64,000 bases of DNA. It comes from Minisyncoccota bacterium (GTDB lineage: Bacteria > Patescibacteriota > Minisyncoccia > Phycocordibacterales > JACRKE01). A model generated the notes under the pieces. The model had not been told where the DNA came from, made no database searches, and was given only the letters and a program-made list of their open reading frames with translations. Of this stretch, positions 4,245-49,174 are shown piece by piece (within the stretch, counting starts at the first letter, position 1; each line of letters starts with the position of its first letter). The stretch covers positions 115,979 through 179,978 of the forward strand of contig JBAZWG010000001.1 in the NCBI GenBank assembly GCA_041660505.1, given 5' to 3'. A program made the translations under genes and the position numbers.

Positions 4245-4280
4245 GAGGTTCGACCTTAAGCACAAAAAAGGTCGAACCTC
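4245..4280 (+). terminator. Hairpin after rpmG, built from two copies of the 13-bp palindrome (GAGGTTCGACC...GGTCGAACCTC)
   Basis: 11-bp perfect stem with A-rich loop. No strong U-tract. Confidence 0.4.
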
Positions 4281-4429: not shown

Positions 4430-5434
4430 ATGTTAACCCCGACTAATTGGAAAGATTATGAGCTCATCGACTCCGGTGACGGAATGAAGCTGGAGCGTTG
4501 GGGCAAGTATGTTCTGGCACGGCCTGACCCACAGACTCTATGGCAGAAGGAGCGGCCGGAACTTTGGAATACTGCGGTGGGAGTTTATACGCGTAGTACC
4601 TCCGGTGGCGGCTCTTGGAGGTTTACAAAGGAACTGCCCGAGCGATGGAAGATTTCGTACAAACTAGAAGGCGAGGCCTTCTTGATGCCCAAGGCCTCGC
4701 CTTCTAGTTTGAGTTTCTGGGTGCGCCCGACAGACTTTAAACATACCGGATTATTTCCGGAACAGGCAGTGAATTGGGGCTGGCTGCGCGACACAATAGG
4801 AGCTAGGAGTTTGGAGTTAGGAGTTGGGGCAGAGAAAATTTCCGTGCTTAATCTCTTTGCCTATACGGGGGCGGCAACAGTCGCCTGTGCTTCGGCAGGT
4901 GCTAGGGTGACACACGTGGATGCTTCCAAGGGCGTCGTGACCTGGGCGCGCGAGAACTTAGAGTTAAACCAAGCCTCACCCCTAACCCCTCCCCGAAAGG
5001 GAAGGGAAACTCTCAAGAATCCCCCCTCTCCTTCGGAGAGGGGGCAAGGGGGTGAGGTGAGTGTGCGCTGGATCGTTGATGATGTCTTCAAATTCGTGGA
5101 GCGTGAGGCAAAGCGCGGTGTCAAATACGACGGCATTATTATGGACCCACCATCCTACGGTCGTGGTACCAAGGGAGAGACATGGAAGATAGAGAAAATG
5201 CTCTGGCCACTCGTCAAAGAGTGCGTCACCGTACTTTCTGATAAGCCTCTGTTCTTTTTAATTAACTCATACACATCAGGACTACCCGCAACAGTCATGA
5301 GCAACTTACTTGAGAGCGCGATGAAAGGCAAGGGTGGTAGTGTTCATTCCGAGGAGCTCGGCTTAAAAGGCTCTGCAACGGGAAGAATTTTACCGGCTGG
5401 AGTGACCGCAAGATGGCAGCAAAAGTCCTCGTAG
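4430..5434 (+). CDS. Class I SAM-dependent RNA methyltransferase (RlmI/YccW-like) carrying an in-frame ~84-bp palindromic-element insertion (4974-5057)
   Basis: LNLFAYTGAATVACASAGA...THVDAS SAM-binding motif and IIMDPPSYGRG (DPPxY) motif. The insert encodes SPLTPPRKGRETLKNPPSPSERGQGGEVS. The 3' end overlaps tRNA-Arg by about 10 nt. Confidence 0.7.
   Translation: MLTPTNWKDYELIDSGDGMKLERWGKYVLARPDPQTLWQKERPELWNTAVGVYTRSTSGGGSWRFTKELPERWKISYKLEGEAFLMPKASPSSLSFWVRPTDFKHTGLFPEQAVNWGWLRDTIGARSLELGVGAEKISVLNLFAYTGAATVACASAGARVTHVDASKGVVTWARENLELNQASPLTPPRKGRETLKNPPSPSERGQGGEVSVRWIVDDVFKFVEREAKRGVKYDGIIMDPPSYGRGTKGETWKIEKMLWPLVKECVTVLSDKPLFFLINSYTSGLPATVMSNLLESAMKGKGGSVHSEELGLKGSATGRILPAGVTARWQQKSS
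4974..5057. repeat. Palindromic element family B, copy 1 (inside the RlmI-like gene). 84 bp, a multiple of 3
   Basis: CCTCACCCC...CCCCTCCCCGAAAGGGAAGGG...CCCCCTCTCC-TTCG-GAGAGGGGG-CAAGGGGGTGAGG. The outer arms are complementary. Confidence 0.7.
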
Positions 5435-9220: not shown

Positions 9221-9230
9221 AATCGTGGGT

Positions 9231-9272
9231 GCCGAGGTTCAACCTTGAGCATCTTAAAGGTTGAACCTCGGC
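9231..9272 (-). terminator. Bidirectional hairpin (GCCGAGGTTCAACCTT...AAGGTTGAACCTCGGC) between the 9300..10229 gene end and the clpB start
   Basis: 15-bp stem made of two 13-bp palindrome copies. Located 3' of the minus-strand gene ending at 9300. Confidence 0.4.
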
Positions 9273-9299
9273 AGTCATTAATTGCTCAAACAATCTATT

Positions 9300-11860: not shown

Positions 11861-13361
11861 ATCAGAGACCTCACAAACCATAGAACGTCCACCCGTGATT
11901 GTAATAATGGGCCACATTGACCACGGCAAGTCAACGCTTTTAGACTATGTTCGCAAAAGCAATATCGTTGCCGGCGAGGCGGGCGGCATCACCCAACACA
12001 CCGGTTCGTATGAAGTGATTCACGAAACGCCGAAGGGCGAGAAGAAAAAGATTACCTTCATCGATACGCCGGGCCACGCGGCATTCTCCGAGATGCGCGT
12101 TCGCGGAGCGATCGCCGCCGATATCGCTATATTAATTATTTCCGCAGAAGAAGGCGTAAAGGCTCAAACCCTCGAGGCCCTCAAGGCCATCATGGAGGCG
12201 AAGATCCCCTACATTGTCGCTATCACCAAAATAGACAAGCCGAATGCCAATGTCGACCGCGTCCGCCAGGACTTAGCAACCAATGACGTATATGTAGAAG
12301 GTTACGGCGGCACCATCCCCTGCGTACCAATATCGTCTAAATCAGGTGAAGGCATCCCAGAATTGCTTGATATGATTTTACTTGTTGCAGAGCTTGGAGA
12401 GTTCAAAGCAGATCCTACACTACCCGCCTCTGGTGTTGTGCTAGAAGCAAGCCTTGATGCCAAACGCGGCGCGTCGGCTACTTTGCTCATTCGTGAGGGC
12501 ACGCTTCATCAAGGCGACTTCCTCGCTATCGGCAACGAGGCAACACCGGTGCGCTCGATGCAAGACTTCAATGGCGCTCGAATAGAATCAGCGACAGTTT
12601 GTGCGCCGGTTCAAATCATGGGATTCAAGACGCCGCCGAAAGCAGGTGCCGTGTTTATGGCAGCGAAGTCGAAGAAAGAAGCGGAGGCTTATGCCGAGAC
12701 TCAAGCGAAGGTGGCGGCAACCGCAAGATTAAGCGCAACAGGCGGCGAGTCTGGTGTAGTGCTCCCCATCATCCTTAAGGCAGACTTCCTCGGCACGCTT
12801 GAAGCGATCGAGGGCGAGCTCAAGAAGCTGACGACCCCGGAAGTGACTATCAAGTTAGTTCACACCGGTATCGGTAATGTGAGCGAAGCCGACATGAAGG
12901 TCGCCGAGAGCAGTGAGCACCCGATTATTATCGGCTTCAATGTCAAAGTCGACAACAGCGCGCAAGGTATTGCCGAAAAGATTGGTGTCCAACCTCGATT
13001 GTTCTCGATCATCTACGAGATAACCGACATGCTTAAAGAAGAAATAGCCAAGCTCACACCCAAGGTGGTCGTCGAGCAAGCGGTTGGCAAAGTCAAGATT
13101 CTTAAGACATTCGGCGGGACGAAGGACAAGCAGATTGTCGGCGGAGCGGTAACCGAAGGCATGATCATAGACGGTAAGCAGGTCAAGGTCATCCGCCAGA
13201 ACACCGAAGTCGCCCGCGGACTCATCGTCGGCTTGCAACAGCAGAAGATCAAAGTTAAAGAAGTCCCGGCCGATACCCAGTTCGGCGCCATGATAGAGTG
13301 CAAGCTCGAGATCGCTCCGGGCGATATTTTAGAAGTGTTCGATATCATCGAAAATTCTTAA
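11835..13361 (+). CDS. infB: Translation initiation factor IF-2 (short form)
   Basis: G-domain IMGHIDHGKSTLLD...DTPGHAAF...TKIDK, followed by beta-barrel domains. rbfA is immediately downstream. Confidence 0.9.
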   Translation: MSAKNYMNKSETSQTIERPPVIVIMGHIDHGKSTLLDYVRKSNIVAGEAGGITQHTGSYEVIHETPKGEKKKITFIDTPGHAAFSEMRVRGAIAADIAILIISAEEGVKAQTLEALKAIMEAKIPYIVAITKIDKPNANVDRVRQDLATNDVYVEGYGGTIPCVPISSKSGEGIPELLDMILLVAELGEFKADPTLPASGVVLEASLDAKRGASATLLIREGTLHQGDFLAIGNEATPVRSMQDFNGARIESATVCAPVQIMGFKTPPKAGAVFMAAKSKKEAEAYAETQAKVAATARLSATGGESGVVLPIILKADFLGTLEAIEGELKKLTTPEVTIKLVHTGIGNVSEADMKVAESSEHPIIIGFNVKVDNSAQGIAEKIGVQPRLFSIIYEITDMLKEEIAKLTPKVVVEQAVGKVKILKTFGGTKDKQIVGGAVTEGMIIDGKQVKVIRQNTEVARGLIVGLQQQKIKVKEVPADTQFGAMIECKLEIAPGDILEVFDIIENS

Positions 13362-13383
13362 ATTCTTTAATTCTGTCCAAAAT

Positions 13384-14568: not shown

Positions 14569-15465
14569 CTACAGACTCAAATTCCGGATGACCTCTGCTG
14601 TGATGGTCGTGGTGGCCGCTTCGCTTGTCGCACCATACAATCTTATCTCGTCACCTTCTACGAATCTCTTGAACGAGATCGTGCTTCTATTTTTATTCAA
14701 GAGTTTTGTGTTTCCATCCAGAACGACGTCATATTCTTTTCTATCCAATACCGCCCTGATCTTAGACTGATTTGTTATCGATAATATCTTGCCGGAATAA
14801 TTTCTCGGCTCAAACTGCTTCAGATCGATGAAGACATTCACTGCCGTTGCGGCGAGCGAATTGTCGGCATGATTATATTCGCCGGATACAGAAATAACTT
14901 TGTCTCCAGCTTGCAACCACGGTGTAGTTATTGTAAGCGTTCCTTTATATATCGGCGCGGAGCCCACGTTCACGCGTACCGGGCCATACTTGGTTGAGTA
15001 CAACGTAAAGGCGTTTTGGTCGGCCATGACTGCCCCGATATTTCCCGAGAAAGCGCTCGTCTCTTTAAGCACCATTAGGTCGACGACATTCCTGGCCGCC
15101 ATAGTGAAGGTATTGCCATTAGCCTCAAGTGTGCCGTCTATATTGAGATAGTCACCTTCTTTTAATTCTTTAAGTGTTGTAGCCTCACCGTATCTGCGGT
15201 AGAACTTGGTATCACCATTAGTCTTTATTGTAACCCGCAAGAACATGTCGCCCCAGACAAGCCGGGCAAAGAACGTGGTGCCGGCAAATTGAGCAATCTT
15301 TACATTACGTAAAGTCATCGCTCCATCCCTAGTCACTGTAATCTCCGGCCGCCTATCAGTACCGACTATATTTTGTAAAATAGAAATCTGCGTTGGCGTC
15401 GTTGTATCGACCTGTGCAAATGCAAACGACGGAACAGTGAGTAATACGAGTAAAAGTTTCTTCAT
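14569..15465 (-). CDS. Secreted hypothetical protein (signal peptide, internally repetitive beta-rich)
   Basis: MKKLLLVLLTVPSFAFA signal peptide. About 3 repeats of a ~90-aa module. No catalytic motif. Confidence 0.55.
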   Translation of the reverse strand: MKKLLLVLLTVPSFAFAQVDTTTPTQISILQNIVGTDRRPEITVTRDGAMTLRNVKIAQFAGTTFFARLVWGDMFLRVTIKTNGDTKFYRRYGEATTLKELKEGDYLNIDGTLEANGNTFTMAARNVVDLMVLKETSAFSGNIGAVMADQNAFTLYSTKYGPVRVNVGSAPIYKGTLTITTPWLQAGDKVISVSGEYNHADNSLAATAVNVFIDLKQFEPRNYSGKILSITNQSKIRAVLDRKEYDVVLDGNTKLLNKNRSTISFKRFVEGDEIRLYGATSEAATTTITAEVIRNLSL

Positions 15466-15472
15466 AATTTTT

Positions 15473-17272
15473 TTACATTTTTTCTAAAGTTTCGATTCCT
15501 AACAACTTCAGACCATTTCTAATAACCTGCGCAGTGGCGGCGGCAATCGCAACTCGATGCGGCGATTCTGCATCATCAGCGCTAACAATCTGTGTACTGC
15601 CATAAAAGCTATTGAACTCCTGCGCAAGCTGGAGCAAGTAACTTGCAAGATGGTTCGGTGCATAGTCAAGCCCGGCTCGCTCGATAATTTCTGGATAGCG
15701 CGCGATGAGCCGAGCGAGCGAGCTTCCGGGTAAGGTTTCGCCTTCCCCTACAGGGTAAGGCGAAACCTTACCCGAGATTCCTGCCGACTCGGCCTTTCGC
15801 AATAGTGACTGAATTCGGGCATACACATATTGCAAATACGGCCCAGAGTCCCCTTCGAAACTTAGGGATGTGTCGAAATCAAAAGTCGTGTCGGTCGTCC
15901 TGCCAGTGCGCAGAATGCTATATTTAATAGCACCGAGCGCGATGATTTCCAGGGCTTCGTCCTCATTCTCAAACATAAATTTCTCCGCCGGTATCCTAGC
16001 CTTGAGCTCTTTCTTTGTAAGTTCTATCAAGTCGTCAACATATACAATATTCCCGGTGCGCGAACTCATTTTGCCGGAGCCCTTGATGCTCACCAGGCCG
16101 TATGGCAGATGTGTAAAATCCGAAATCTTACCGATACCAAGTTGCTCGCATATCGCGAACACCTGTCGTAATGCCAGCGACTGCTCCGGCCCAACGACCC
16201 AGAACATTTTATCAGCGCGCGTCTTTTCTTTCTTAAGTTTCGTTAAAGCGATATCTTGCGTAATATATAAAGATGTACCGTCGCGCTTCATTAATATAGT
16301 ATCGGGAATCTTGTACGACTCAAGTTTCGAGAGGACTGCGCCGTCTTCAAGCTTAGTAAACACGCTTTTTGCCAATCCCTCTTCTATGTATTTCTTACCT
16401 TCTGCGTAATGCTCGCTCTCTTTCCAGAAGATATCTACACTGCTTCCAAGTCGCTTCATCGTTGCCATTTGCCCATCAAGCACCCAGCCCACAAGTAATG
16501 ACGTTAGTTCTCGAACATATGGTCCGTCCGCATCCCACGCCAAAGTTAGCTCTCTTACTAGTGCTTCGGTTTCAAGATTTTTGAAATCATCAGTGCCAAG
16601 CGTATAATACTGTTCTACGAAACGATCCGGCTTGATGCCCACAGATTCAGGCGTGAGCCACTCTGATTTATTTTCTGCCCAGCCAGCCACAGTCGCCTTC
16701 GTCTCGTCTTTATCATTTCTGCCAAATTTGAGATAGCCCCAGACAAGCTTCATAATGGCTATCCCTCTGTCATTTAAAACGTAGTCTCGCACAACGTTAA
16801 TACCCATAGCTTGCCACAGATTAGAAACCGCCATACCGGTGATGTTGTTGCGCAAATGGCCAAGGTGTAGCGCCTTCGTCGGATTGGCTGAAGTGTGCTC
16901 GATGAGCCAAGTCTTGCCCTTGCCCCAGTCACTTTTGCCATATGCCTCTTTCTCATCAAGAATAGTCTTCAAACTTCCTGCAAAAAACTCCGGTTTGAGA
17001 AATATATTCACGAATCCAGGCCCAGCCACTTCAGCCTTCGCAACAAGCGCGTGCTTCTCGAGTTCGGCTGCAATCTGCTCGCCGATATCCTTAGGTTTTT
17101 TACCCAGCTCTTTAGAAAGTTGCAAAGCAACGTTGGTCGTGTAATCACCGTGCTCGAAAGATTCCGGGTGCGTCAAGGCAACATTCACCTCCCCATCAAA
17201 TCTAGGGAATATCCTGCGTACAATATCCAGCACCTCCCGCGCGAGTTTTTCTCTAATATTTTCCGTCATCAC
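15473..17272 (-). CDS. argS: Arginine--tRNA ligase ArgS, with an in-frame insertion of a palindromic-repeat pair at 15727-15776
   Basis: HLGHLRNNITG (HIGH-type motif), the DALR anticodon-binding C-terminus and MSSRTG (KMSK-like). The insertion encodes GKVSPYPVGEGETLPGS in the C-terminal domain. Confidence 0.9.
   Translation of the reverse strand: MMTENIREKLAREVLDIVRRIFPRFDGEVNVALTHPESFEHGDYTTNVALQLSKELGKKPKDIGEQIAAELEKHALVAKAEVAGPGFVNIFLKPEFFAGSLKTILDEKEAYGKSDWGKGKTWLIEHTSANPTKALHLGHLRNNITGMAVSNLWQAMGINVVRDYVLNDRGIAIMKLVWGYLKFGRNDKDETKATVAGWAENKSEWLTPESVGIKPDRFVEQYYTLGTDDFKNLETEALVRELTLAWDADGPYVRELTSLLVGWVLDGQMATMKRLGSSVDIFWKESEHYAEGKKYIEEGLAKSVFTKLEDGAVLSKLESYKIPDTILMKRDGTSLYITQDIALTKLKKEKTRADKMFWVVGPEQSLALRQVFAICEQLGIGKISDFTHLPYGLVSIKGSGKMSSRTGNIVYVDDLIELTKKELKARIPAEKFMFENEDEALEIIALGAIKYSILRTGRTTDTTFDFDTSLSFEGDSGPYLQYVYARIQSLLRKAESAGISGKVSPYPVGEGETLPGSSLARLIARYPEIIERAGLDYAPNHLASYLLQLAQEFNSFYGSTQIVSADDAESPHRVAIAAATAQVIRNGLKLLGIETLEKM
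15727..15776. repeat. REP family A, tandem pair of hairpin copies (inside argS)
   Basis: CGGGTAAGGTTTCGCCTTCCCC followed by AGGGTAAGGCGAAACCTTACCCG. Confidence 0.7.
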
Positions 17273-17320
17273 ACCATAGTAGCAATACCGAGGTCAGTTA
17301 TCAAACGTGGATATCAATTC

Positions 17321-17363
17321 GGGGTAAGGTTTCGCCTTACCCCGAAGGGCTAAAGCCCGAAAG
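17321..17363. repeat. REP family A copy (intergenic), followed by a small GGGCTAAAGCCC hairpin
   Basis: GGGGTAAGGTTTCGCCTTACCCCG, a perfect 9-bp stem with TTTCG loop. Confidence 0.7.
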
Positions 17364-17427
17364 AAAATTCAAAAACCCAAAGTATCAAAGGGTCAAAGAT
17401 TCAAAGGAAGGCAAAAAGAATAACGAA

Positions 17428-18591
17428 CTAAGCATCCAACTTGCGGGATCGGAAGACCAGCCTGCTGCCAGCACTCCACCTGCTGTCAGGAGAGGCGTAG
17501 CCGTAGCTGAGCCAGCGCCTGCCACCGTCCGCGCTGACGCTCCAGACGCGCGGATCGTCGCCACGATCGGTAATCTGCTTCATGGCCATATAGAGATATT
17601 CTCCCATAGGTTGGTCGGAATATTGGAGACGCAGGTAAACACCTGCTTCAGCGGGTACGAGCTCGAAACCGAGTTCCGCTGCTCTTGTGTAGATTTCATC
17701 AGTCGTTGCACCGTTCGGGAAGCCCAGAGATTCCACTGAAAAGCTAACCAGATTGTATTGTTCTTGTGTGCCGGTAAACTCTGTTTTTGCGAGCATGTCT
17801 TTGGCGTAGTCGCCGACTTCAAAACCCTTCGCCTTGAGTGCTCGCTTCGCCTCTTCTGCATTTGTGATAGTTGGGTCGCCTTCGACGGTTTTCAGGAATA
17901 TACTTTGGTCGGGGAAGCGTTCATAGGCGTGTTTGATTGATGGTGGAAACTTTGCATATACTTCGGGATTCCACGGGCCGATATAGGCGACGGTTTCTGA
18001 AGTAATGGCACTCGGTTCGTAGGCGATTTGTGCAGGAGTACAGTCAAAGAGTACGGGAAGGTCATCCTTTTGGTTGCGCTTCGCCTGTATTTCTTTGATC
18101 CGCGGGTCGCGGTCGTAGCCAAAACCCTCAATTTTTGACTCGATCTCGTAGAGAAAGATAAGGTCTTCTCGGGGTAAGGTTTCGCCTTCCCCCGCCTTGC
18201 GCTCGATGTCGGTGAGGCGCTTCATGTCTGCAGACTTCTTTTTGTACTTGTCTGCTTCGGGGCCGAAGTCTTTTAGTTTCTCGTCGAGCTTTGGAGCAAT
18301 ATGCGGGTCGAAGTTTTGGTCATGGGCAATACCGCGGATTTCACCGATGTGCTCGCCCTGCATGCGGATAGCTAGGCGTGGGACAATCGCTTCGCCCGCC
18401 TCATTGATTGAGTAGTAGAGGTGCATGTCTCCGCCATCTAGGTAGTTTTGCGCAGTGGTAAGATCGGCGATGCACCATTCTAGCGGGTGGCCTTCTAGAG
18501 ATTGTACCAGCTCTGTTGCATCGCCGCCTTGCTTATAGGTAATCCATTTTCCTCGTGTCTCCTGCAAGCCTTCGGTAGAATACTCCGGCAT
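17428..18591 (-). CDS. Hypothetical protein. This is the C-terminal part of a longer reading frame that continues upstream, in frame, to 19347 across a single TAG
   Basis: No internal stops in 17428..18729. The 138 nt upstream of the annotated ATG also translate cleanly (RLEQKAKPKDERTALKNESIKLSDEEFQALLSTENFSKIYAQFLIE-MPEY...). Contains an in-frame REP copy (GEGETLPRED). Confidence 0.5.
   Translation of the reverse strand: MPEYSTEGLQETRGKWITYKQGGDATELVQSLEGHPLEWCIADLTTAQNYLDGGDMHLYYSINEAGEAIVPRLAIRMQGEHIGEIRGIAHDQNFDPHIAPKLDEKLKDFGPEADKYKKKSADMKRLTDIERKAGEGETLPREDLIFLYEIESKIEGFGYDRDPRIKEIQAKRNQKDDLPVLFDCTPAQIAYEPSAITSETVAYIGPWNPEVYAKFPPSIKHAYERFPDQSIFLKTVEGDPTITNAEEAKRALKAKGFEVGDYAKDMLAKTEFTGTQEQYNLVSFSVESLGFPNGATTDEIYTRAAELGFELVPAEAGVYLRLQYSDQPMGEYLYMAMKQITDRGDDPRVWSVSADGGRRWLSYGYASPDSRWSAGSRLVFRSRKLDA
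18171..18196. repeat. REP family A copy (in-frame inside ORF 17428..18591)
   Basis: GGGGTAAGGTTTCGCCTTCCCCCGCC. Confidence 0.65.
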
Positions 18592-18729
18592 TTCAATCAG
18601 AAATTGCGCGTATATTTTGGAGAAGTTCTCGGTGGAGAGAAGGGCTTGGAACTCCTCATCGGAGAGCTTAATGCTTTCGTTTTTGAGGGCTGTTCGCTCG
18701 TCTTTGGGCTTTGCCTTTTGCTCGAGACG

Positions 18730-19347
18730 CTAGCGCAGCATGCCAATTGTAAGAGCAAGTGCTCGTGGGTTGAGCGGGGGGAACGAAGCTACGGAGTCTT
18801 TGGTTCGTTTCTGGAAACGGGCGGTCTCTTTGCCATTTTCACCTTCCTCTTTCTTGAGCTTGCCCATTTCAAGCATAGAGCGGAAGGCCCAGTATTTCGC
18901 CCAGTCGGGGTACTGTGCATCAGACGAGGAAAGGTAGTCGATCCACTTGTTGAGGCTGTGTGTTTGGTTGTTGACGATCTGTTCCGTCTTCTGCTTTTTA
19001 AACTCTTCCGTAATCTCGACATCTCCGTGCCCTAAGTCTCGAGCAATACGTTGTTCTAGCAGAAAAGCTTCTTCGGGAACTTCTTCGGGCTTGATGACGA
19101 ATTTGTCGTTGAGGACGCGCTTCAAGGCCTCGATACCGCGCTCTTTGCCTTCGGGTTCTTCACGATTTAGAATTTCATTGAAACGGTCAAGGTAGTTTTG
19201 AATGCGTTTAAGGGGCTTTTGTGAGACTTTTTCACCCGTTCGTATTTCTGTGCGCTTGGCAGCAGAAGCCACCTCTCCGCTGCTGTGGAGAGCGCTATAT
19301 TTTTCTTTGAGAAAGGCTGGGTTTTCTTCGGTAGGGAATTTTTCCAT
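18730..19347 (-). CDS. Hypothetical protein. This is the N-terminal part of the same frame, ending at an in-frame TAG at 18730-18732
   Basis: Same reading frame as 17428..18591 (both lower bounds give the same remainder modulo 3). Possibly a pseudogene, a read-through gene, or a sequencing error. Confidence 0.45.
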   Translation of the reverse strand: MEKFPTEENPAFLKEKYSALHSSGEVASAAKRTEIRTGEKVSQKPLKRIQNYLDRFNEILNREEPEGKERGIEALKRVLNDKFVIKPEEVPEEAFLLEQRIARDLGHGDVEITEEFKKQKTEQIVNNQTHSLNKWIDYLSSSDAQYPDWAKYWAFRSMLEMGKLKKEEGENGKETARFQKRTKDSVASFPPLNPRALALTIGMLR

Positions 19348-19392
19348 GAGAAGAGTATATCAAACGCCAAAATTGACGCAAATTTATCTATC

Positions 19393-19416
19393 GGAGTAAG
19401 GCGAAACCTTACCCCG
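19393..19416. repeat. REP family A copy at the 3' flank of the RAYT gene
   Basis: GGAGTAAGGCGAAACCTTACCCCG, with the loop in opposite orientation. Confidence 0.7.
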
Positions 19417-20089
19417 AATATGGATATTTTGGCTTTTTCTCTTTTTCGCCTATTAGCATTGTGGCGACTTCGCTGAAGTCTCCCTGCTCTATAAGCCATT
19501 TAAAATAGTTATTTGGAATCTTGGTATAATCTTTCAGAACCTCCGGATTTAGGATCTTATTTTTTACAAACTTATTGTCGTACGCTTTAGCACTTGAGTA
19601 TTGATACGTTTGTAGCACAGACTCTCTTGGTAAGAAATTCTTCATCTCACAGGGATTTAGGTGGATGTAATCTATAATTTTCAGCAAGTATTCTTCATCG
19701 GTTATCAGCTTACTTTTAAATACTCCTTGAAAAAGTGCGCCGCTCCGCCCATACTTTTCGTTAAAATACATTGTGTAGGCAGTGCCGAGCCGTTGCATAA
19801 ACTTACTGATACCTCCCTCATAAATTTCGTGGAGGAGTAAATGAAAATGATTCGGCATAAGGCAGTATGCCATTACCGCAACAAGTGGTTTATGGTCAAT
19901 ATCTTTTTCTGCTTCTTCTCCTTGCGATTTTATCAGACGACTTGGACTTTCCACTTCACGATCATTGAGCAAATACAGATACTTTAAAAACAACTTGCGG
20001 TCAGCATTGGACAGAAAAATATCGCGCTTCTCGGTTCCGCGATTATAAACATGGTGAAAAGATTCTAATTCAATAGGTACACGCTCCAT
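19409..20089 (-). CDS. IS200/IS605-family Y1 (HUH) transposase of the REP-associated tyrosine transposase (RAYT) type
   Basis: FHHVYNRGTEKRDIF, CLMPNHFHLLL (HUH) and YIHLNPCE (catalytic Tyr region) motifs. Flanked at 19393-19416 and 20108-20137 by the GGGGTAAGG-TTTCG-CCTTACCCC hairpin repeat. Confidence 0.75.
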   Translation of the reverse strand: MERVPIELESFHHVYNRGTEKRDIFLSNADRKLFLKYLYLLNDREVESPSRLIKSQGEEAEKDIDHKPLVAVMAYCLMPNHFHLLLHEIYEGGISKFMQRLGTAYTMYFNEKYGRSGALFQGVFKSKLITDEEYLLKIIDYIHLNPCEMKNFLPRESVLQTYQYSSAKAYDNKFVKNKILNPEVLKDYTKIPNNYFKWLIEQGDFSEVATMLIGEKEKKPKYPYSG

Positions 20090-20107
20090 TTCCCCATTAT
20101 ACCCTTA

Positions 20108-20137
20108 TTCGGGGTAAGGTTTCGCCTTACTCTGGGG
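20108..20137. repeat. REP family A copy at the 5' flank of the RAYT gene
   Basis: TTCGGGGTAAGGTTTCGCCTTACTCTGGGG. Confidence 0.7.
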
Positions 20138-20142
20138 ATAAG

Positions 20143-21936
20143 TTAGACTGTTTGGGTGCGGGTTGCTTTGATTCTTTCGTTCTCGGTCAGGTACTGCTTG
20201 CGTAGGCGAACACTTGTGGGGGTGATTTCTAAATATTCGTCTTCATTCATTACTTCGAGTCCGCGTTCAATGGTGAGCAAATATGGTGGGACGAGGTCGA
20301 TTGCTTCATCGGATGACTTGGACCGCATGTTGGTCAGCTGTTTACCCTTGGTCGGGTTGACGGCCATCTCCTCGCCTTTCGACGTATTGCCGATCACCAT
20401 GCCTTCATACACCTCTGTCCCCGCTCCTATATACAGAGCACCGCGATCCTGCAAGTTCCAAAGGGCGAAGCCGAGGGCCTTGCCGGACTCCATCGAGATC
20501 ATTGAGCCAACGGGCTTCTTGCGGATCTCACCGGCGTAGGGCTTAAAGCCAATAACGCGCGAGGATAAAATCCCTTCGCCTTTGGTATCGACGATAAATT
20601 GAGAACGATAACCAAGCAAGCCGCGGGTGGGACCTTCGAAAATAATGCGGGTCAACTCGCCAACTTGTTTGAGCTCGCTCATTACAAATGCGCGCGAACC
20701 CAAGCGCTCGATTATGACGCCTTGGAATTCTGCCGGTGTGTCAACAATGACCTCCTCGAATGGTTCATGTTTATTGCCGTCGACATTATGGAAGATAACT
20801 TGTGGTTGAGAAACTTGCAGCTCATAGCCTTCACGGCGCATGTTCTCGAGCAATATGGAAATATGCATTTCTCCTCGGCCGGAAACTTGGAATCTTTCCG
20901 CTTCTGTAAAGTCTACGCGGAGCCCCACGTTGACCTCGAGTTCGCGTTCAAGCCTCTCACGAATCTGACGCGTCGTCACGAACTTGCCTTCTCTGCCGGC
21001 AAAAGGGCTTGAGTTCGGCATGAAGTTAAGCGTGATGGTCGGCTCGTCTACCGATATTGCCTTGAGCGGTTCGGCTGAGGCATCAGAGGTAACCGTCTCG
21101 CCGATGTCGATATCCGCCAAGCCGGCAATCATCACGATGTCTCCGGCCTCGGCTTCTGTTGCTTCTACTTTCTGCATTCCCTTGAAGGTGAAGATTTTAG
21201 TTAGCTTTCCACTGCGCGTATCGCCGTTTGGCTTGCGGACGAAGACGTTCTGCCCGGCCTTGATAATACCCTCATAGACACGGCCGACGGCCATGCGACC
21301 GAGGAAGTTGTCGTAAGCGAGATTGAACGACTGGAAGCGAAGAGGTACATCATGCTTGGCATTCGAGGCCGGCGGTACGTAAGCGAGAATAGTATCAAGA
21401 AGCGGTGTCAGATCACTCGACTCGTCGGTCAATTTTTTCTTCGCCACGCCGGCGCGGCCGTTGGCATAAACGACGGGGAAGTTTATTTGCGCGTCGTCGG
21501 CACCAAGCTCCATGAAGAGTTCGAGGACTTGTTCCTCGCACCGCGCCGGATCAGCGGCAGGCTTGTCTATTTTATTGATGACGACAATCGGCTCAAGGCC
21601 AAGCTCGAGCGATTTCTTTAGTACGAATCTGGTTTGTGGCATTGGCCCTTCCTGCGCGTCAACGATAAGTAATACCGAATCGATGGCAGAGAGCACGCGC
21701 TCCACCTCGGAGCCGAAGTCAGCATGGCCCGGTGTGTCTACTATATTAATCTTAGTATCTTTGTAATATATCGCAGCGTTTTTGGAATATATAGTAATAC
21801 CGCGCTCTTGCTCGAGAGCATTGGTGTCCATCGTAACCCCCTCGCCACCCACGCCTGTCTGCTTCAAAAGAGCGTCGGTCAAGGTGGTCTTGCCGTGGTC
21901 CACGTGTGCGATAATTGCGATATTGCGGATTTCCAT
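20143..21936 (-). CDS. typA: Translational GTPase BipA/TypA. Start placed at the internal Met ([19 protein letters not shown])
   Basis: G1 [22 protein letters not shown] and EF-G-like domains, with BipA-type C-terminus. The upstream 32 codons of the ORF look like non-coding read-through. Confidence 0.9.
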
Positions 21937-22018
21937 AAAGAAACTATAATAACACAAAATCACGTCCATTGGAAGTGATTTTGTGTTTATCTTAAATTCT
22001 CTAATTCTGCAATTCTGC

Positions 22019-22276
22019 CTATTTGCACCCACCCGCTCCTACCGTATTACAGACGACGTTCAGTATCCCGAAGACGGAAATCATTATAGCCAAGCCGATG
22101 ACGCCATAAAGCATGTGCTGTCTGCCCTTGCTCCGCTCTGCCTCGTTATCAACATGATAGATGAACTCCGCAACACCCCAGATAAAGTAAGCAAGCGCAG
22201 CCGCTCCCAAGAGACCAATGATTGGATTAAGTATCGCGGACTCTATCTTACCGATAAGGGCTACGGCGGCGTTCAT
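22019..22276 (-). CDS. Small two-TM hairpin membrane protein, divergent member of the pilin-like paralog array
   Basis: TM1, short charged loop (HVDNEAERSKGRQHM) and TM2. Same architecture as its neighbours. Confidence 0.4.
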   Translation of the reverse strand: MNAAVALIGKIESAILNPIIGLLGAAALAYFIWGVAEFIYHVDNEAERSKGRQHMLYGVIGLAIMISVFGILNVVCNTVGAGGCK

Positions 22277-22295
22277 GTATTAAGCGCTAGCCAGT

Positions 22296-22667
22296 TTACT
22301 GAACAGATTGTACAACTCCGGGAGCCGGAAGAACCTGAACACGCTGTATTCCCAAAGTATCCTGCAAGAAGTAAACAAGCCCCCAGACCGAGGCAATAAC
22401 GAACATGGCGATAGTGCCATAAATCATGCGCGCGCGACCCTCTTCTTTCTTACCCGTGTCACCTGACTCCAAAATGTACTCTGCCAAGCCGTAGATGAAA
22501 TAGATAAGCGCCAGAGCAACCATAATAGGCACAATGGCGTTGAATACCTTCTGCAAGGTAACCATAAAGCCCAAAATATTCGACGGGTTACCACTCACCT
22601 GTGCTCCAGCAATGAACGGCGCGAACGCCATCATCCCGAGAACCGCTGCTTTTATGTTTCGTGACAT
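22296..22667 (-). CDS. TrbC/VirB2-pilin-like small membrane protein, paralog 1
   Basis: Signal peptide, then conserved core LALIYFIYGLAEYIL-SG-GKKEEGR-RMI-GTIAMFV--SVWGLV. Confidence 0.5.
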   Translation of the reverse strand: MSRNIKAAVLGMMAFAPFIAGAQVSGNPSNILGFMVTLQKVFNAIVPIMVALALIYFIYGLAEYILESGDTGKKEEGRARMIYGTIAMFVIASVWGLVYFLQDTLGIQRVQVLPAPGVVQSVQ

Positions 22668-22776
22668 ATACTAATATTAATTAATTCTAAATAATTTTCG
22701 ACTTAATAAATTTTCTTGATAAACTTTATAATGTGTATATTGTACCGTGCCTATCGCAACCTGTACAGTGGAAAGC

Positions 22777-23130
22777 TTATCGATTGGCTGGGAGTAGTGG
22801 CGCGTTTATAGTACTTTTGTCTCCTACGCCTGTCGTCGTTTGTATAAACGCCACTAATCCCCACACCGACACTAGCACGAACATCGCGATAGTACCCCAG
22901 ATCATTCTGGTTCGACCTTCTTCTTTCTTGCCTGATTCACCGGATATTAAGATGTATTCCGCTAAGCCGTAGATAAAGTAGATGAGCGCGAGGCCAACGA
23001 AGATAGGCACGAGTGCGTTCATGGCAGACTTAACAGTACCGAGGAAACCGAGCAAGTCAGCGGCGAATGCCACCATTGGTAATGTAGTAATCACCCCCAC
23101 TATCCCGATTTTTGTTTTTATATGCTTCAT
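22777..23130 (-). CDS. TrbC/VirB2-pilin-like small membrane protein, paralog 2
   Basis: Same conserved core (GLALIYFIYGLAEYILISGESGKKEEGRTRMIWGTIAMFVLVSVWGLVAF), with variable N- and C-termini. Confidence 0.5.
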   Translation of the reverse strand: MKHIKTKIGIVGVITTLPMVAFAADLLGFLGTVKSAMNALVPIFVGLALIYFIYGLAEYILISGESGKKEEGRTRMIWGTIAMFVLVSVWGLVAFIQTTTGVGDKSTINAPLLPANR

Positions 23131-23159
23131 GTTAAATAACTCATTATAATTAATTTTGA

Positions 23160-23555
23160 TTAAATCGTTGGAAGCCCCGGCGAGACCACCTGCACATTAG
23201 CATCAATGCCGACAGTCTTTTGTAAAAACGCCACCAATCCCCACACCGACACTAGCACGAACATCGCTATCGTGCCCCAGATCATACGCGTCCTGCCTTC
23301 TTCTTTCTTGCCCGACTCACCGGAGATTAATATGTATTCTGCCAGGCCGTAGATAAAATAAATCAAAGCCAGACCGACCATAATTGGGACCAACAGATTC
23401 ATTACACTTTTAACCGTTTGCAAAAAACTAAATGCGCTTCCTCCTCCGTTCCCTACCCGCCCGCCCACAGCTGCGTCTGCTTGCGCATATATCGTCGTCG
23501 GGATTAATAATAATACAGGAACAGCTAACCGCAATAAATTCTTTGTTCTATTCAC
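23160..23555 (-). CDS. TrbC/VirB2-pilin-like small membrane protein, paralog 3
   Basis: Core identical to paralog 2 at protein level and near-identical at nucleotide level. Distinct N- and C-termini. Confidence 0.5.
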   Translation of the reverse strand: MNRTKNLLRLAVPVLLLIPTTIYAQADAAVGGRVGNGGGSAFSFLQTVKSVMNLLVPIMVGLALIYFIYGLAEYILISGESGKKEEGRTRMIWGTIAMFVLVSVWGLVAFLQKTVGIDANVQVVSPGLPTI

Positions 23556-23573
23556 GATTATTTTTAATTTCTA

Positions 23574-23867
23574 TTACTTATTAAATTGAGGTGCGGGAGG
23601 AGCATTTAACGAGGAACTTTGTGTATTTCCCCAGACCGTTGCTTGCAGAAGATTCACCAGCCCCCAGACAGAAATTATCACGAACATGGCTATCGTACCC
23701 CAGACCATGCGCATTCTGCCTTCTTCTTTTTTAGATGCCTCGCCGGAGACCAGAATATATTCTGCAAGTCCATAGATAAAGTAGATGAGTGCGAGGCCAA
23801 CGCAGAGCGGGACGATTATACTGAAAATACCGCGAATGTTGTTTAAGATAGATTTTACGTCGGTCAT
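23574..23867 (-). CDS. TrbC/VirB2-pilin-like small membrane protein, paralog 4
   Basis: Core GLALIYFIYGLAEYILVSGEASKKEEGRMRMVWGTIAMFVIISVWGLV. Confidence 0.5.
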   Translation of the reverse strand: MTDVKSILNNIRGIFSIIVPLCVGLALIYFIYGLAEYILVSGEASKKEEGRMRMVWGTIAMFVIISVWGLVNLLQATVWGNTQSSSLNAPPAPQFNK

Positions 23868-23872
23868 TATTT

Positions 23873-24208
23873 TTATTTTAATTTATCGACAGTGGCCTTT
23901 AGTGCCTCGCTTATAACCTTGGCACCGAGCACGACACCGGCGCCGATGACCGTCCAGAGGAAGGCGTTATTCGCCGTCTTAATCTCCTCCGGCTTGCCCT
24001 GCGCCTTTACGAACATGAAGCCGACCCAGATGATAGCCATCACCAAGACCGGCACGCCGATATCAATAACGACTTGGAGAATATCTTTAAGCAGTGTCTG
24101 AATGTCTGGCGCACTGATAGGATTGCTAAGTGGTGCTGAAGCCGCAGTTACCAACGCGATCGGCATGAAGGCAAGAGAAATCGCGATTAATTTTTTTAGT
24201 GTTCTCAT
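23873..24208 (-). CDS. TrbC/VirB2-pilin-like small membrane protein, subfamily 2 member a
   Basis: Signal peptide, TM1, loop VKAQGKPEEIKTANNAF, then TM2 WTVIGAGVVLGAKV. Confidence 0.5.
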   Translation of the reverse strand: MRTLKKLIAISLAFMPIALVTAASAPLSNPISAPDIQTLLKDILQVVIDIGVPVLVMAIIWVGFMFVKAQGKPEEIKTANNAFLWTVIGAGVVLGAKVISEALKATVDKLK

Positions 24209-24265
24209 TATTTTAAATTCTATAATTCTTCAATTCCTTAATTCTGTTCGTGTTATATTGTACAC

Positions 24266-33554: not shown

Positions 33555-33595
33555 TTCAAATTATTCACAGCCTCCCAACTTCCAACTCCTATCTC

Positions 33596-34225
33596 CTAAC
33601 TCCTATTATATTCCCCCATTGCTCTATCACGGCCTTCGGTGATTATTGCCGTAAGTGCTTCTGCCGCTCTCTTGGCGATTTTCTTGAACTCTTCGGATTC
33701 AGCTTTAGAAAATTTGCCTAATATAAGATCAATGACCGCATCCTCGCCTATCGGCTTTTTGAGTTTGCCGGACGGCGTTACCTTCGACACGCCAACACGC
33801 ACGCGAGTGAATGCTTCAGATCCTAGAACCTTCACTACAGACTTGAGCCCGTTATGCCCGCCGGGACCACGATTGTACGAAACTCGTAAAGTACCAATCG
33901 GCAGGTCAATGTCATCGTGCACGATAATTAAATTCTCGTAAAACTTTTTACCTTTCGTGATCTTGCGTCCGAGCAAAGTCGGACTTACTGCCCCGACGCT
34001 CTTTCCGGAATTATTCATGAACGTCTCTGGTTGCATGAGCAGTACACCGATCCTTTCAACTTTCCCCTTTGTAACTTTCGACTGTGTCTTTTTATCACTC
34101 TCCCATTCAGCCAGCTCATAAACTTTCCTAAATTGCTCAAGCACAATCCGCCCGACATTATGCCGCGTCTGTTCGTACTCTTCCCCCGGATTCCCCAAAC
34201 CCACGATTACAAAGTTTTTTGCCAT
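33596..34225 (-). CDS. pth: Peptidyl-tRNA hydrolase
   Basis: VIVGLGNPGEEYEQTRHNVG, IIVHDDIDLPIGTLR, GGHNGLKS. Confidence 0.9.
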   Translation of the reverse strand: MAKNFVIVGLGNPGEEYEQTRHNVGRIVLEQFRKVYELAEWESDKKTQSKVTKGKVERIGVLLMQPETFMNNSGKSVGAVSPTLLGRKITKGKKFYENLIIVHDDIDLPIGTLRVSYNRGPGGHNGLKSVVKVLGSEAFTRVRVGVSKVTPSGKLKKPIGEDAVIDLILGKFSKAESEEFKKIAKRAAEALTAIITEGRDRAMGEYNRS

Positions 34226-35685: not shown

Positions 35686-35720
35686 GTCCCTACCGACGAG
35701 GTTCAACCTCGGCGGTAAAA

Positions 35721-46957: not shown

Positions 46958-46987
46958 ACTGTGCGAGGTTGAACCTCGCACAGTTTG
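46957..46987. terminator. Hairpin (AAACTGTGCGAGGTTGAACCTCGCACAGTTT) at the right border of the island. Contains the 13-bp palindrome
   Basis: 12-bp stem around a self-complementary core. Confidence 0.45.
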
Positions 46988-47848: not shown

Positions 47849-49174
47849 TTATTTACGTCTCCAAGAGGGCTTAAAGCCGCCATGCCCGCCACCACGTCCG
47901 CCATGTCCGCCAAATTTTTGTGATTCATAAGGGCGTTCTTTGATAGTGCTCTGGCGTGCCGGCGGGAGATCTTGCGGCTTGGATTTCTCCGGCAGGCGCT
48001 TCTTGGTCAAACGTTCGATGGTCTGTATGTCACGGCGCTCATGATGCTCGGCGAATGAGATTGCCTTGCCCTCTTTACCCGCGCGGCCGGTACGGCCGAT
48101 GCGATGGACGTAATCCTCGGCCGAGTCCGGTAGGTCATAATTAATAACAAGGCCGATGTCGGAGACATCGATACCGCGCGCAGCAATGTCTGTCGCCACC
48201 AAGACGCGATATTTACCTTTCTTAAATCCGAGCAAGGCCTCTGTGCGCTGTGAGAGAGATTTATTGGAATGAATATCCGTCGCCGTATGACCCATGTCTT
48301 GGATATGTTTGGCGAGTCTCTTGGCACCGTGCTTGGTGCGTGAGAAAACGAGTATCGTGCCCGGGTTGTCGGCAATGAGCTTCTCGAGCAAGCGCGATTT
48401 CTCTTCTTTCGTAACGAAATAAATTTCTTCAGAAATTTTTGCAACAGTCGTGCCCGATGTGGCAACCTGTACCGTTTGCGGTGCGTGCAGATAGGCCTTC
48501 GCCATTTGAGCAATCTTGTCCGGCATCGTGGCCGAGAAAAGAAGCGTCTGATGTACCTTCGGGATCATCGCGATGACGGTGCGAATCTGCGGCTCGAATC
48601 CCATATCAAGCATTCTGTCGGCTTCATCGAGAATTAATATCGAGACTTGGGATAGGTCAATCGTCTTCTGGCGAATGTGGTCATTGATACGGCCGGGGGT
48701 AGCGACTATCACGTGCGGATTCTCGCGGAGCTTGCGCATCTGGGCACCCATGTTGGCACCGCCGACGAGCATGGCGGTTTTAATTCCTAAATCTTTTCCG
48801 ATAGCAACAAGCTTCTCGTCCACCTGGGCGGCGAGCTCGCGCGTGGGCAAGAGCACTAGGCCAGTGCCCTTGGTCAAGGCTAGGCGCTGGAGCATCGGCA
48901 GACCGAAGGCGAGCGTTTTGCCTGTGCCGGTCTGGGCGATACCGATGATGTCCTTGCCAGTTAACACAACCGGTATGGCCTGCGCCTGGATAGGTGTCGG
49001 GTTGGTAATATTGAGCTTAGCTAGAGTATTGGTGAATACCGGAGCGAGGCCGAGGTCGGTGAAGGTTACTGAACCAACCGTAGAAGGTTCAACCTTTTGG
49101 ACCTGCCCGACAGTGCCAGTCATTGGCAGGCGGGTGCCTAAGGTTGAACCTTGGGAAGTGGTGTTTTGTGGCAC
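47849..49174 (-). CDS. DEAD-box ATP-dependent RNA helicase with Gly/Arg-rich C-terminal tail
   Basis: Q-motif FTDLGL...PTPIQ, AQTGTGKT, DEAD, SAT, HRIGRTGRAG. The real start may be the Met at ~49123. Confidence 0.9.
   Translation of the reverse strand: MPQNTTSQGSTLGTRLPMTGTVGQVQKVEPSTVGSVTFTDLGLAPVFTNTLAKLNITNPTPIQAQAIPVVLTGKDIIGIAQTGTGKTLAFGLPMLQRLALTKGTGLVLLPTRELAAQVDEKLVAIGKDLGIKTAMLVGGANMGAQMRKLRENPHVIVATPGRINDHIRQKTIDLSQVSILILDEADRMLDMGFEPQIRTVIAMIPKVHQTLLFSATMPDKIAQMAKAYLHAPQTVQVATSGTTVAKISEEIYFVTKEEKSRLLEKLIADNPGTILVFSRTKHGAKRLAKHIQDMGHTATDIHSNKSLSQRTEALLGFKKGKYRVLVATDIAARGIDVSDIGLVINYDLPDSAEDYVHRIGRTGRAGKEGKAISFAEHHERRDIQTIERLTKKRLPEKSKPQDLPPARQSTIKERPYESQKFGGHGGRGGGHGGFKPSWRRK

Follow-up and report, generated by a model that had tools for sequence, protein, structure and literature searches.

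Introduction

Systems that pair repetitive extragenic palindromic (REP) sequences with REP-associated tyrosine transposases (RAYTs), and the REP doublets forming hairpins (REPINs) that go with them, are well described in Proteobacteria (PMC3479197, PMC3116915, PMC5581495). Di Nocera et al. (2013) found REPs that lie wholly inside open reading frames (ORFs) in several phyla, and dimers or groups made up over half of these (PMC3733652). Such intragenic REPs hit genes for tRNA synthetases and other nucleic-acid enzymes, REP ends provide stop codons, and REP-specific 'REPtrons' occur as well (PMC3733652). Intragenic REPs together with REP-flanked tyrosine transposase genes are recorded from Opitutus, Thauera, Xanthomonas, sphingomonads and others (PMC3733652). 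The Rickettsia palindromic elements (RPEs) of Ogata et al. (2000), as cited in two sources, are the classic in-frame palindromes in Rickettsia genes (PMC10969869, PMC3733652). Here, we analyzed a 64-kb stretch of DNA (the window) that carries a gene for a RAYT-type transposase between inverted copies of a short hairpin, designated REP1, further copies of which lie inside neighboring genes. The likely explanation is a REP/RAYT system that belongs to a Paceibacteria genome, a member of the candidate phyla radiation (CPR), and has been spreading its cognate hairpins.

An earlier note on this DNA, made from the letters alone, had taken the host for a member of the CPR/Patescibacteria. This is borne out by proteins matching exactly those of the window, which lie on a contig of 719,008 bp that its sources assign to Candidatus Paceibacterota.

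A RAYT-type transposase gene between inverted hairpins

The transposase gene and the six REP1 copies of the window are arranged as follows:

19409..20089, minus strand: RAYT-like Y1/HUH tyrosine transposase of 226 amino acids (aa), by profiles, fold and motifs
15727-15749, plus strand: REP1 copy in argS, half of a doublet
15752-15774, minus strand: REP1 copy in argS, other half of the doublet
17321-17343, plus strand: sole perfect REP1 copy, in the intergenic space that separates the start of argS from the stop codon of the hypothetical ORF
18171-18193, plus strand: REP1 copy matching at 22 of 23 positions, within the conserved CPR (hypothetical) ORF
19393-19415, minus strand: REP1 copy at the 3' end of the RAYT gene, outer part of the arm 19394-19432
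20111-20133, plus strand: REP1 copy upstream of the RAYT start, outer part of the arm 20094-20132

The transposase ORF contains the motifs HHVYNRG, MPNHFHLLL and DYIHLNP. Its HUH motif is H80-F-H82 and the putative catalytic residue, Tyr140, lies within DYIHLNP. The Pfam model Y1_Tnp (PF01797) scored 33.6 bits over residues 59-143 (cut-off 23; E=4.9e-8). The sole NCBIfam match was REP_Tyr_transpos (43.4 bits, E=3e-11), and none of the IS200 models in NCBIfam matched at E <= 0.01. In an alignment with homologues, H80, H82, Y140 and N144 were invariant in 35/35 sequences, as was a C-terminal Y-x-x-S-S, which reads Y-x-Y-S-S in the window protein. The HUH and tyrosine motifs, on which the view of this ORF as a REP-associated tyrosine transposase had been based, are upheld by the alignment, and the Y1_Tnp score is above the cut-off.

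When an AlphaFold2 model of the protein (mean predicted local distance difference test score, pLDDT, 86) was searched against the PDB, the best match was 4er8_A, the E. coli TnpA-REP bound to a REP hairpin (E=9.6e-6), followed by the TnpA proteins of IS608, ISDra2 and IS200 (E = 1e-4 to 1e-3, with 1e-4 for IS608). The match probability was 1.00 for 4er8, 2a6m, 2xma, 2vjv and 2f4f alike. Comparison with E. coli RayT (b0228) by hhalign gave E=5.7e-5 and a probability of 66%, pairing MPNHFHLLL with LPEHMHCIW, DYIHLNP with DYIYINP (the Y115 region) and YQYSS with WPFST. A phmmer search of the transposase against PDB sequences returned nothing relevant, and a profile of 35 sequences gave weak matches to both ISDra2 TnpA (E = 0.14) and 4er8 (E = 0.3). 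The active site of E. coli TnpA-REP comprises Y115, H59, H61, N119, H123 and E161 (PMC3479197); equivalents of Y115, H59, H61 and N119 are conserved in the window protein, and H123 has no equivalent.

The two flanking hairpins, inverted relative to each other, each form the outer part of a longer arm; the arms (19394-19432 and 20094-20132) are 39-nt inverted repeats with 90% complementarity. The 3' REP1 copy overlaps the transposase ORF and provides its stop codon within GGGG-TAA-GG. On the coding strand, the inner part of the arm at 20094-20132 reads GGGTATAATGG, a -10-like hexamer. The presence of the hairpin at both gene ends, as originally reported, was confirmed by these inverted copies. 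Taken together, the findings support a REP/RAYT-type module, in which a Y1/HUH enzyme lies between inverted copies of a hairpin that is also found elsewhere.

The fold matches to IS608, ISDra2 and IS200 TnpA, and a profile that is about equally weak for ISDra2 TnpA and for 4er8, would also suit an autonomous insertion sequence (IS) of the IS200/IS605 type, with the hairpins as its ends and the extra copies as solo ends or debris resembling miniature inverted-repeat transposable elements. Such an element is at odds with several features of the gene: it has the same hairpin, inverted, at both ends and not a left end that differs from the right one, it lacks a tnpB partner, and the NCBIfam match is to the RAYT model only.

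Copies and folding of REP1

REP1 is a 23-nt palindrome, GGGGTAAGG-TTTCG-CCTTACCCC. With up to three mismatches to GGGGTAAGGTTTCGCCTTACCCC allowed, six copies were found in the window as compared to 0.00 expected from 100 shuffles, and all six are confined to 15727-20133, i.e. 4.4 kb of the 64 kb. The count covers 64 kb of the 719-kb contig; repeats that flank RAYT genes are typically abundant, with tens to hundreds of copies per genome. The count confirms the hairpin repeat that had been noticed from the letters alone, and the sites that had been given for it stand. Their extent had to be corrected, since the unit is 23 nt long and the flanking copies therefore end at 19415 and 20133. A scan of 185,579 species-representative genomes, a set that excludes the source genome, with GGGTAAGGTTTCGCCTTMC gave three matches in unrelated taxa; with at least four mismatches to the full 23-mer these were set aside as chance. 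In the aligned copies, GGGGTAAGG is preceded by (A/T)TTC or TC, and the 3' flanks are variable.

Folding was assessed for single-stranded DNA (ssDNA). The perfect intergenic copy, the stem of which extends to 12 bp (17318-17346), folds with -14.0 kcal/mol (z = -6.9), while the argS doublet at 15727-15774 forms one long hairpin with -25 to -26 kcal/mol (z = -8.7). Folding had been proposed earlier as a check on the repeat, and both form stable hairpins. The copy in the hypothetical ORF (18171) has a stem mismatch and reaches -7.8 kcal/mol (z = -2.2).

Copies at gene ends, including those where REP1 serves as stop codon for the RAYT gene and for a kinase-like gene on another contig (L009), could point to hairpins that are host regulatory structures, namely terminators, mRNA stabilizers or protein-binding sites, beside which the Y1 gene would be incidental. 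For REPs elsewhere, roles in transcription termination and mRNA stabilization have been hypothesized (PMC3733652). However, none of the REP1 hairpins is followed by a T-tract or was called terminator-like, and in a terminator and promoter scan of 15400-20400 the counts did not exceed those of shuffles and the REP1 hairpins were not flagged. An Rfam scan of the window returned tRNAs only and no family matching the REP region. Moreover, of the seven sites that do not flank a RAYT gene, four lie within conserved coding sequences, and every RAYT homologue or paralogue examined has a matching hairpin of its own, which is unexpected for an incidental neighbor. We therefore regard a regulatory origin as very improbable.

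Each transposase has its own hairpin

More than 7,900 homologues of the transposase were scored, and those with a named source are nearly all from CPR, where the sources label them merely 'transposase' or 'hypothetical'. The host genome itself encodes two further paralogues, P0012 and P0019, each with a different flanking hairpin. P0012 is 56% identical to the window protein and is flanked by TAGAAGGC-GAG-GCCTTCTA (REP2); P0019 is 49% identical and is flanked by TAGAGAGTT-C-AACTCTCTA. The three paralogues are mutually 49-66% identical, and among them there are no identical gene copies of the kind seen for insertion sequences. Five homologues from other CPR assemblies, with 47-82% aa identity, are likewise hairpin-flanked, so that a matching hairpin was present in 8/8 genes inspected (the window gene, two paralogues and five homologues).

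Among these homologues the hairpin is the same, related or different in step with divergence. The closest one (L023/L024, 82% aa identity) lies in an arrangement typA-REP-RAYT-REP that is colinear with window positions 21804-19396 and has 76.6% nucleotide identity over 2.4 kb, indicating that the RAYT module was inherited in place. Its hairpin is GGCGTAAGG..CCTTACGC; a compensatory stem change, G3:C21 to C3:G21, is found in L023 and L020. In L016-L019 (76% aa identity), the window's REP is present on both sides of the gene in another genomic neighborhood. L020 (54%) has doublets of CGTAAGGTTTCACCTTACG on both sides, with the same core as REP1, and L021 and L022 (47-49%) are flanked by doublets of their own with different hairpins. 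A scan of metagenomes for the REP core yielded six contigs with true copies, and look-ups by protein supplied further ones. In the window and the metagenome contigs, REP1 copies that are not next to a RAYT gene occur in typA, in fmt, where a kinase gene ends (3') and at intergenic sites.

These comparisons bear on an IS200/IS605-type origin in both directions. The different context of RAYT and REP in L016, together with absence of the unit between argS and typA in the relative L010, implies that the whole unit was moved or lost at least once, as an insertion sequence would be. On the other hand, no near-identical genes are seen among the three paralogues, which are 49-66% identical with a hairpin each, the place beside typA is kept at 77% nucleotide identity, which indicates vertical inheritance, and the scattered copies consist of nothing but a 23-nt hairpin or a 48-nt doublet, with no transposase remnant. 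On balance we judge an insertion sequence of this type unlikely.

Two side observations concern the same region. First, the RAYT-adjacent segment is a gene-turnover hotspot, the content of which differs in each relative: the interval between argS and typA is 105 nt with nothing in between in L010 (1386-1490), contains RAYT and an unrelated 148-aa ORF in L023 (2413-3039), and contains RAYT and a 640-codon conserved gene in the window (17273-20142). Second, in L023 a tandem repeat of the hairpin 3' arm plus spacer (GCCTTACGCATTTTA) directly follows the RAYT-proximal hairpin (2390-2445).

Insertion of REP1 into typA and fmt

The genes of the window that matter for the in-frame copies are:

20143..22032, minus strand: typA/bipA, with the empty site PPASNAKHD around 21349-21375
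15473..17272, minus strand: argS, arginine-tRNA ligase (Pfam; NCBIfam TIGR00456, 412 bits)
15727..15774, both strands: REP1 doublet in argS, two inverted copies with a 2-nt spacer, in frame
17428..19347, minus strand: conserved CPR protein gene (hypothetical ORF), no Pfam domain, absent at this position in L010 and L023

Insertion into genes is shown directly by a comparison of filled and empty sites in typA. The typA gene of L010, which is 86% identical to that of the window, carries a 48-nt REP1 doublet encoding GVRRNLTPESKVSPYP, with a net gain of 13 aa. The same site is empty, reading PPASNAKHD, in the window, L023 and L024, and is filled in L010 only; the doublet is present or absent as one unit. 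In L008, a single REP1 copy in fmt is read as GKAKPYP, and the Fmt protein is 8 aa longer, exactly at this peptide, than three solved Fmt proteins. These three structures are the basis of the comparison, as there is no fmt in the window or the other loci. Both sites are on contigs that carry neither a RAYT gene nor another REP copy. Hence the spread of the palindrome into housekeeping genes in frame, as proposed in the earlier note, is established by genes outside the window. An example of a predicted peptide from the insert-bearing proteins is GKVSPYPVGEGETLPGS.

The length of the elements and their coding potential fit survival within genes. A doublet comprises 23+2+23 = 48 nt, i.e. 16 codons, and so keeps the reading frame. 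When both orientations of the 23-mer are considered, four of six frames are open (GVRFRLTP, GKVSPYP, GVRRNLTP, GKAKPYP) and one frame per orientation contains TAA. Three of the open frames are in use: GKVSPYP in argS and in L010 typA, GVRRNLTP in L010 typA and, for L008 fmt, GKAKPYP. Two copies, those at 15727 and 18171, are read in the TAA frame. These share an A-to-C change, CCTTCCCC for CCTTACCC, which converts CCTTACCCC to CCTTCCCCC, turns TAA into GAA and yields GEGETLP. The change that removes the stop also breaks one stem pair; it weakens the hairpin and probably immobilizes the two copies. In L009, the stop codon of the kinase-like gene is itself provided by a REP1 copy.

How the copies may have been placed

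A working scheme can be drawn up by analogy. The 226-aa protein would be a RAYT-type Y1/HUH single-strand DNA endonuclease/transferase that, like E. coli TnpA-REP (PMC3479197), would bind the folded 23-nt hairpin on ssDNA. It would cleave beside the hairpin via Tyr140, with a metal ion held by H80, H82 and N144, and the strand would be rejoined at another single-stranded site, such that single hairpins and tight 48-nt doublets (REPIN-like units) spread. REPIN-like doublets with a 2-nt spacer are seen in argS and L010 typA, and singles are seen as well (fmt, 17321 and 18171). The gene and its two inverted hairpins are passed down as a unit, the hairpin staying near-constant while the genes diverge. 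As the window is ~89% coding, most insertions land in genes. Surviving copies would be those that keep the frame (48-nt doublet, ~24-nt single) and occupy tolerant surface loops in a stop-free frame.

A number of observations weigh against this reading. The REP_Tyr_transpos score, 43 bits, falls below the RAYT equivalog cut-off of 80, and the model shares ~11% identity with 4er8 at a TM-score of 0.46/0.60. Neither the GTAG nor the CGTC tag of the described REP superfamilies is conserved among the aligned REP1 copies. The copy number looks low and local, all six copies being within 4.4 kb of the gene, and in relatives no REP copies were found beyond ~500 nt of the transposase gene within the flanks of at most 10 kb per side, where copy numbers are probably low as well. 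Cleavage, strand transfer and target choice in the scheme are all borrowed from E. coli TnpA-REP. Finally, two of the intragenic sites in the window behave differently from those in typA and fmt. The argS doublet encodes GKVSPYP-V-GEGETLP, with the surrounding reading ISGKVSPYPVGEGETLPGSS, at the start of the DALR domain in a variable loop after the first DALR helix, the length of which varies widely among 39 orthologues. Compared to the closest orthologue (63% identity), the window loop has only ~2 aa more. In the hypothetical ORF, the copy at 18171-18193 is read as GEGETLP within RKAGEGETLPREDL and aligns without gap or length change to 43 homologues. An unchanged length here and an excess of ~2 aa in argS are not predicted by simple cut-and-insert transposition.

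For argS, what remains of the original proposal is that the doublet sequence is lineage-specific; a plain gain of 16 aa is not shown by the alignment of ArgRS orthologues. A clean empty argS allele was not obtained, as L010 ends before the site and the ArgRS of L023 is of a different type beyond residue ~100. In the hypothetical ORF, the 43 homologues carry K-x-G-[EQ]-x-L-[TS]-K at the columns of the copy, and the copy is best read from this alignment as overwriting pre-existing sequence. The claim that this ORF had gained GEGETLPRED is therefore withdrawn, the length being the same and a similar motif being present in the homologues. Nor is the gene intact: an in-frame TAG at 18730-18732 splits it into parts of 205 and 433 aa, and the source annotation holds a 387-aa ORF only. 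The gene may be a recent pseudogene, or the TAG may be an assembly error or a read-through site. The family is CPR-wide (967 homologues of ~610-650 aa). A Cpf1_PI-like Pfam match in the N-terminal half of the ORF was rejected as sub-threshold (19 bits against a cut-off of 27).

These two sites invite the explanation that the intragenic copies were written onto partly similar sequence by gene conversion or template switching, with nearby REPs as donors and the transposase having no part in their placing. The unchanged length of the hypothetical ORF agrees with this, and homologues already read G-E-x-L there (P0247, for example, has KAGETLTKEE), for which GGC GAA ACC TTA, the REP loop plus 3' stem, is a possible spelling; so do the clustering of the six window copies and the argS loop, which hardly exceeds its closest counterpart in length. 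Conversion fails to explain the gains of 13 aa in L010 typA and 8 aa in L008 fmt, which are near element size, with empty alleles that bear no resemblance to the hairpin. The typA and fmt contigs, without RAYT or another REP, offer no nearby donor, and the window contains a doublet of REP2, the cognate RAYT of which (P0012) is encoded outside it. As a general account of the intragenic copies, conversion is thus quite unlikely, and spreading by a REP/RAYT system is the explanation that we prefer.

Apart from its repeat, argS shows a further peculiarity. Compared to the syntenic ArgRS of L023, residues 1-100 are 58-82% identical and the rest 16-36%, with the exception of one 50-residue block (62%); compared to P0122, the first 50 residues are 38% identical and the following ones 48-78%. 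This pattern suggests that ArgRS is a mosaic, in which the catalytic and anticodon-binding parts were replaced by recombination.

Further repeat families in the window

Other palindromes are found in frame in genes of the window as well:

4430-5434: ORF for an S-adenosylmethionine (SAM)-dependent methyltransferase (PF10672), with three different repeats in frame
4665..4706: REP2 doublet (LEGEAFLMPKASPSS), in frame in the methyltransferase ORF; the hairpin flanks RAYT P0012
4798-4828: GGAGTT-type repeat (GARSLELGVGAEK), in frame in the methyltransferase ORF
4974-5057: composite palindromic element of ~85 nt, in frame in the methyltransferase ORF
57229-57312: second copy of the composite element, in frame in the TsaD gene (ORF 56382-57641)
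4245-4280, 9230-9273, 35698-35710, 46965-46977 and 49084-49152: sites of the 13-nt palindrome RAGGTTSAACCTY
2654-2686 (miaA 3' end), 4798-4828 (methyltransferase, in frame) and 33572-33604 (intergenic): CTCCYAACTCC-type copies

P0012 itself is not encoded in the window, and the presence of the REP2 doublet there implies that the REP2 family is dispersed too. The composite element, a family of ~75-95 nt in the methyltransferase and TsaD genes, contains the hairpins CCCTCCCCGAAGGAGAGGG and CCCCCTCTCCTTCGGGGAGGGGG. Alignment with 32 homologues shows its methyltransferase copy to be a clean insertion of 25 aa; the copy in TsaD, which encodes PSPTLPEGEGENTETSGLSSPSPSGRGQGGG, breaks the Pfam TsaD match up into two parts. 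A cognate transposase for this element was not identified.

The palindrome RAGGTTSAACCTY occurs in eight copies as compared to 0.26 expected, mostly as inverted doublets between genes, with one doublet inside a DEAD-box helicase ORF, at its N-terminus as annotated. Hairpins similar to this palindrome flank the transposase genes of L021 and L022, so that it may belong to another RAYT whose gene lies beyond the window. Three copies of the CTCCYAACTCC-type repeat, 31-33 nt long, are 87-92% identical. In addition, a unit of ~200 nt recurs four to five times at 22159-23840, with a spacing of 313-478 nt and 63-78% identity between the diverged copies; the series corresponds to small paralogous ORFs that follow one another in tandem downstream of typA, on the minus strand. 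At 13348-13376, 21982-22018 and 24203-24247, which are intergenic or gene-end positions, there are short runs of an 8-nt unit (TCTNAATT-like, e.g. TCTTAAATTCTCTAATTCTGC).

Comparison with known systems

RAYT-type genes are very common in CPR assemblies, and Proteobacteria have been nearly the sole focus of earlier study. Our results suggest that REP/RAYT systems are a regular feature of ultra-small genomes, where ~89% coding density means that repeats end up in essential genes. As a more speculative extension, which we put forward tentatively, several RAYT/hairpin pairs per genome may persist in Paceibacteria, perhaps in CPR widely, mainly inside protein-coding genes, as there is little intergenic space; selfish palindromes would then continually rewrite the surface loops of proteins that are essential for translation (ArgRS, TypA, Fmt, TsaD, rRNA methyltransferase), and some copies, e.g. 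that in the hypothetical ORF, may come by replacement or conversion beyond known REP/RAYT mechanisms. The in-gene repeats are a natural record of protein loops that tolerate insertions of 8-25 residues. They are also a likely cause of assembly and annotation trouble in metagenome-assembled CPR genomes and, because sites differ between relatives, could be used as strain-level markers.

The closest parallel is with the proteobacterial REP/RAYT systems of E. coli (RayT/YafM) and Pseudomonas fluorescens SBW25. Shared with these are the HUH motif, the tyrosine in D-Y-I-x-x-N-P and W/Y-x-F/Y-S-S/T, the position of the gene between inverted short GC-rich hairpins that also occur elsewhere as singles and inverted doublets, and the pairing of one gene with one hairpin family, with several diverged pairs per genome and vertical inheritance in place. 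The locus differs in its host, a CPR bacterium with 0.72 Mb, in the size of the protein (226 aa as compared to 165 aa), in ~11% identity and in the sub-cut-off NCBIfam score. REP1 is without the GTAG guide at its 5' foot, the doublets are tight (0-2 nt spacer, 48 nt) and without a spacer region, and the copies are few and mostly within genes rather than intergenic.

With TnpA of the IS200/IS605 family (IS608, ISDra2), which recognizes subterminal hairpins on ssDNA, the protein shares its fold and catalytic motifs. Those elements have distinct ends, identical multi-copy elements and often tnpB, and none of this was seen here.

RPEs resemble REP1 in being in-frame palindromes in unrelated housekeeping genes of a small reduced genome that encode short, fold-compatible peptides. 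The composite element, with ~75-95 nt and copies in the genes for the methyltransferase and TsaD, is similar to them in size and behavior. The first-described RPEs are ~150 bp long, and to our knowledge no transposase has been assigned to RPEs. REP1, in contrast, has 23 nt (doublet 48 nt) with an obvious cognate enzyme adjoining, and the likeness is one of behavior only.

In the literature that we searched, there was no paper linking RAYT, REP or REPIN with Patescibacteria/CPR, and the expectation that the combination of both phenomena in such a host would be new is retained in this respect. It does not extend to intragenic REPs with RAYT genes as such, which had already been catalogued (PMC3733652). 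Like the GTAG/CGTC REPs and REPtrons of that survey, REP1 occurs in frame as singles and dimers, targets a tRNA synthetase gene and provides stop codons from its ends. Unlike them, it carries neither tag, it comes from CPR, outside the surveyed taxa, and its intragenic share, with 4/7 sites off RAYT flanks, appears much higher. The phenomenon opens no new class of mechanism and its kind is already known; what looks novel is the host lineage, the CPR, and the high share of copies inside genes is notable.

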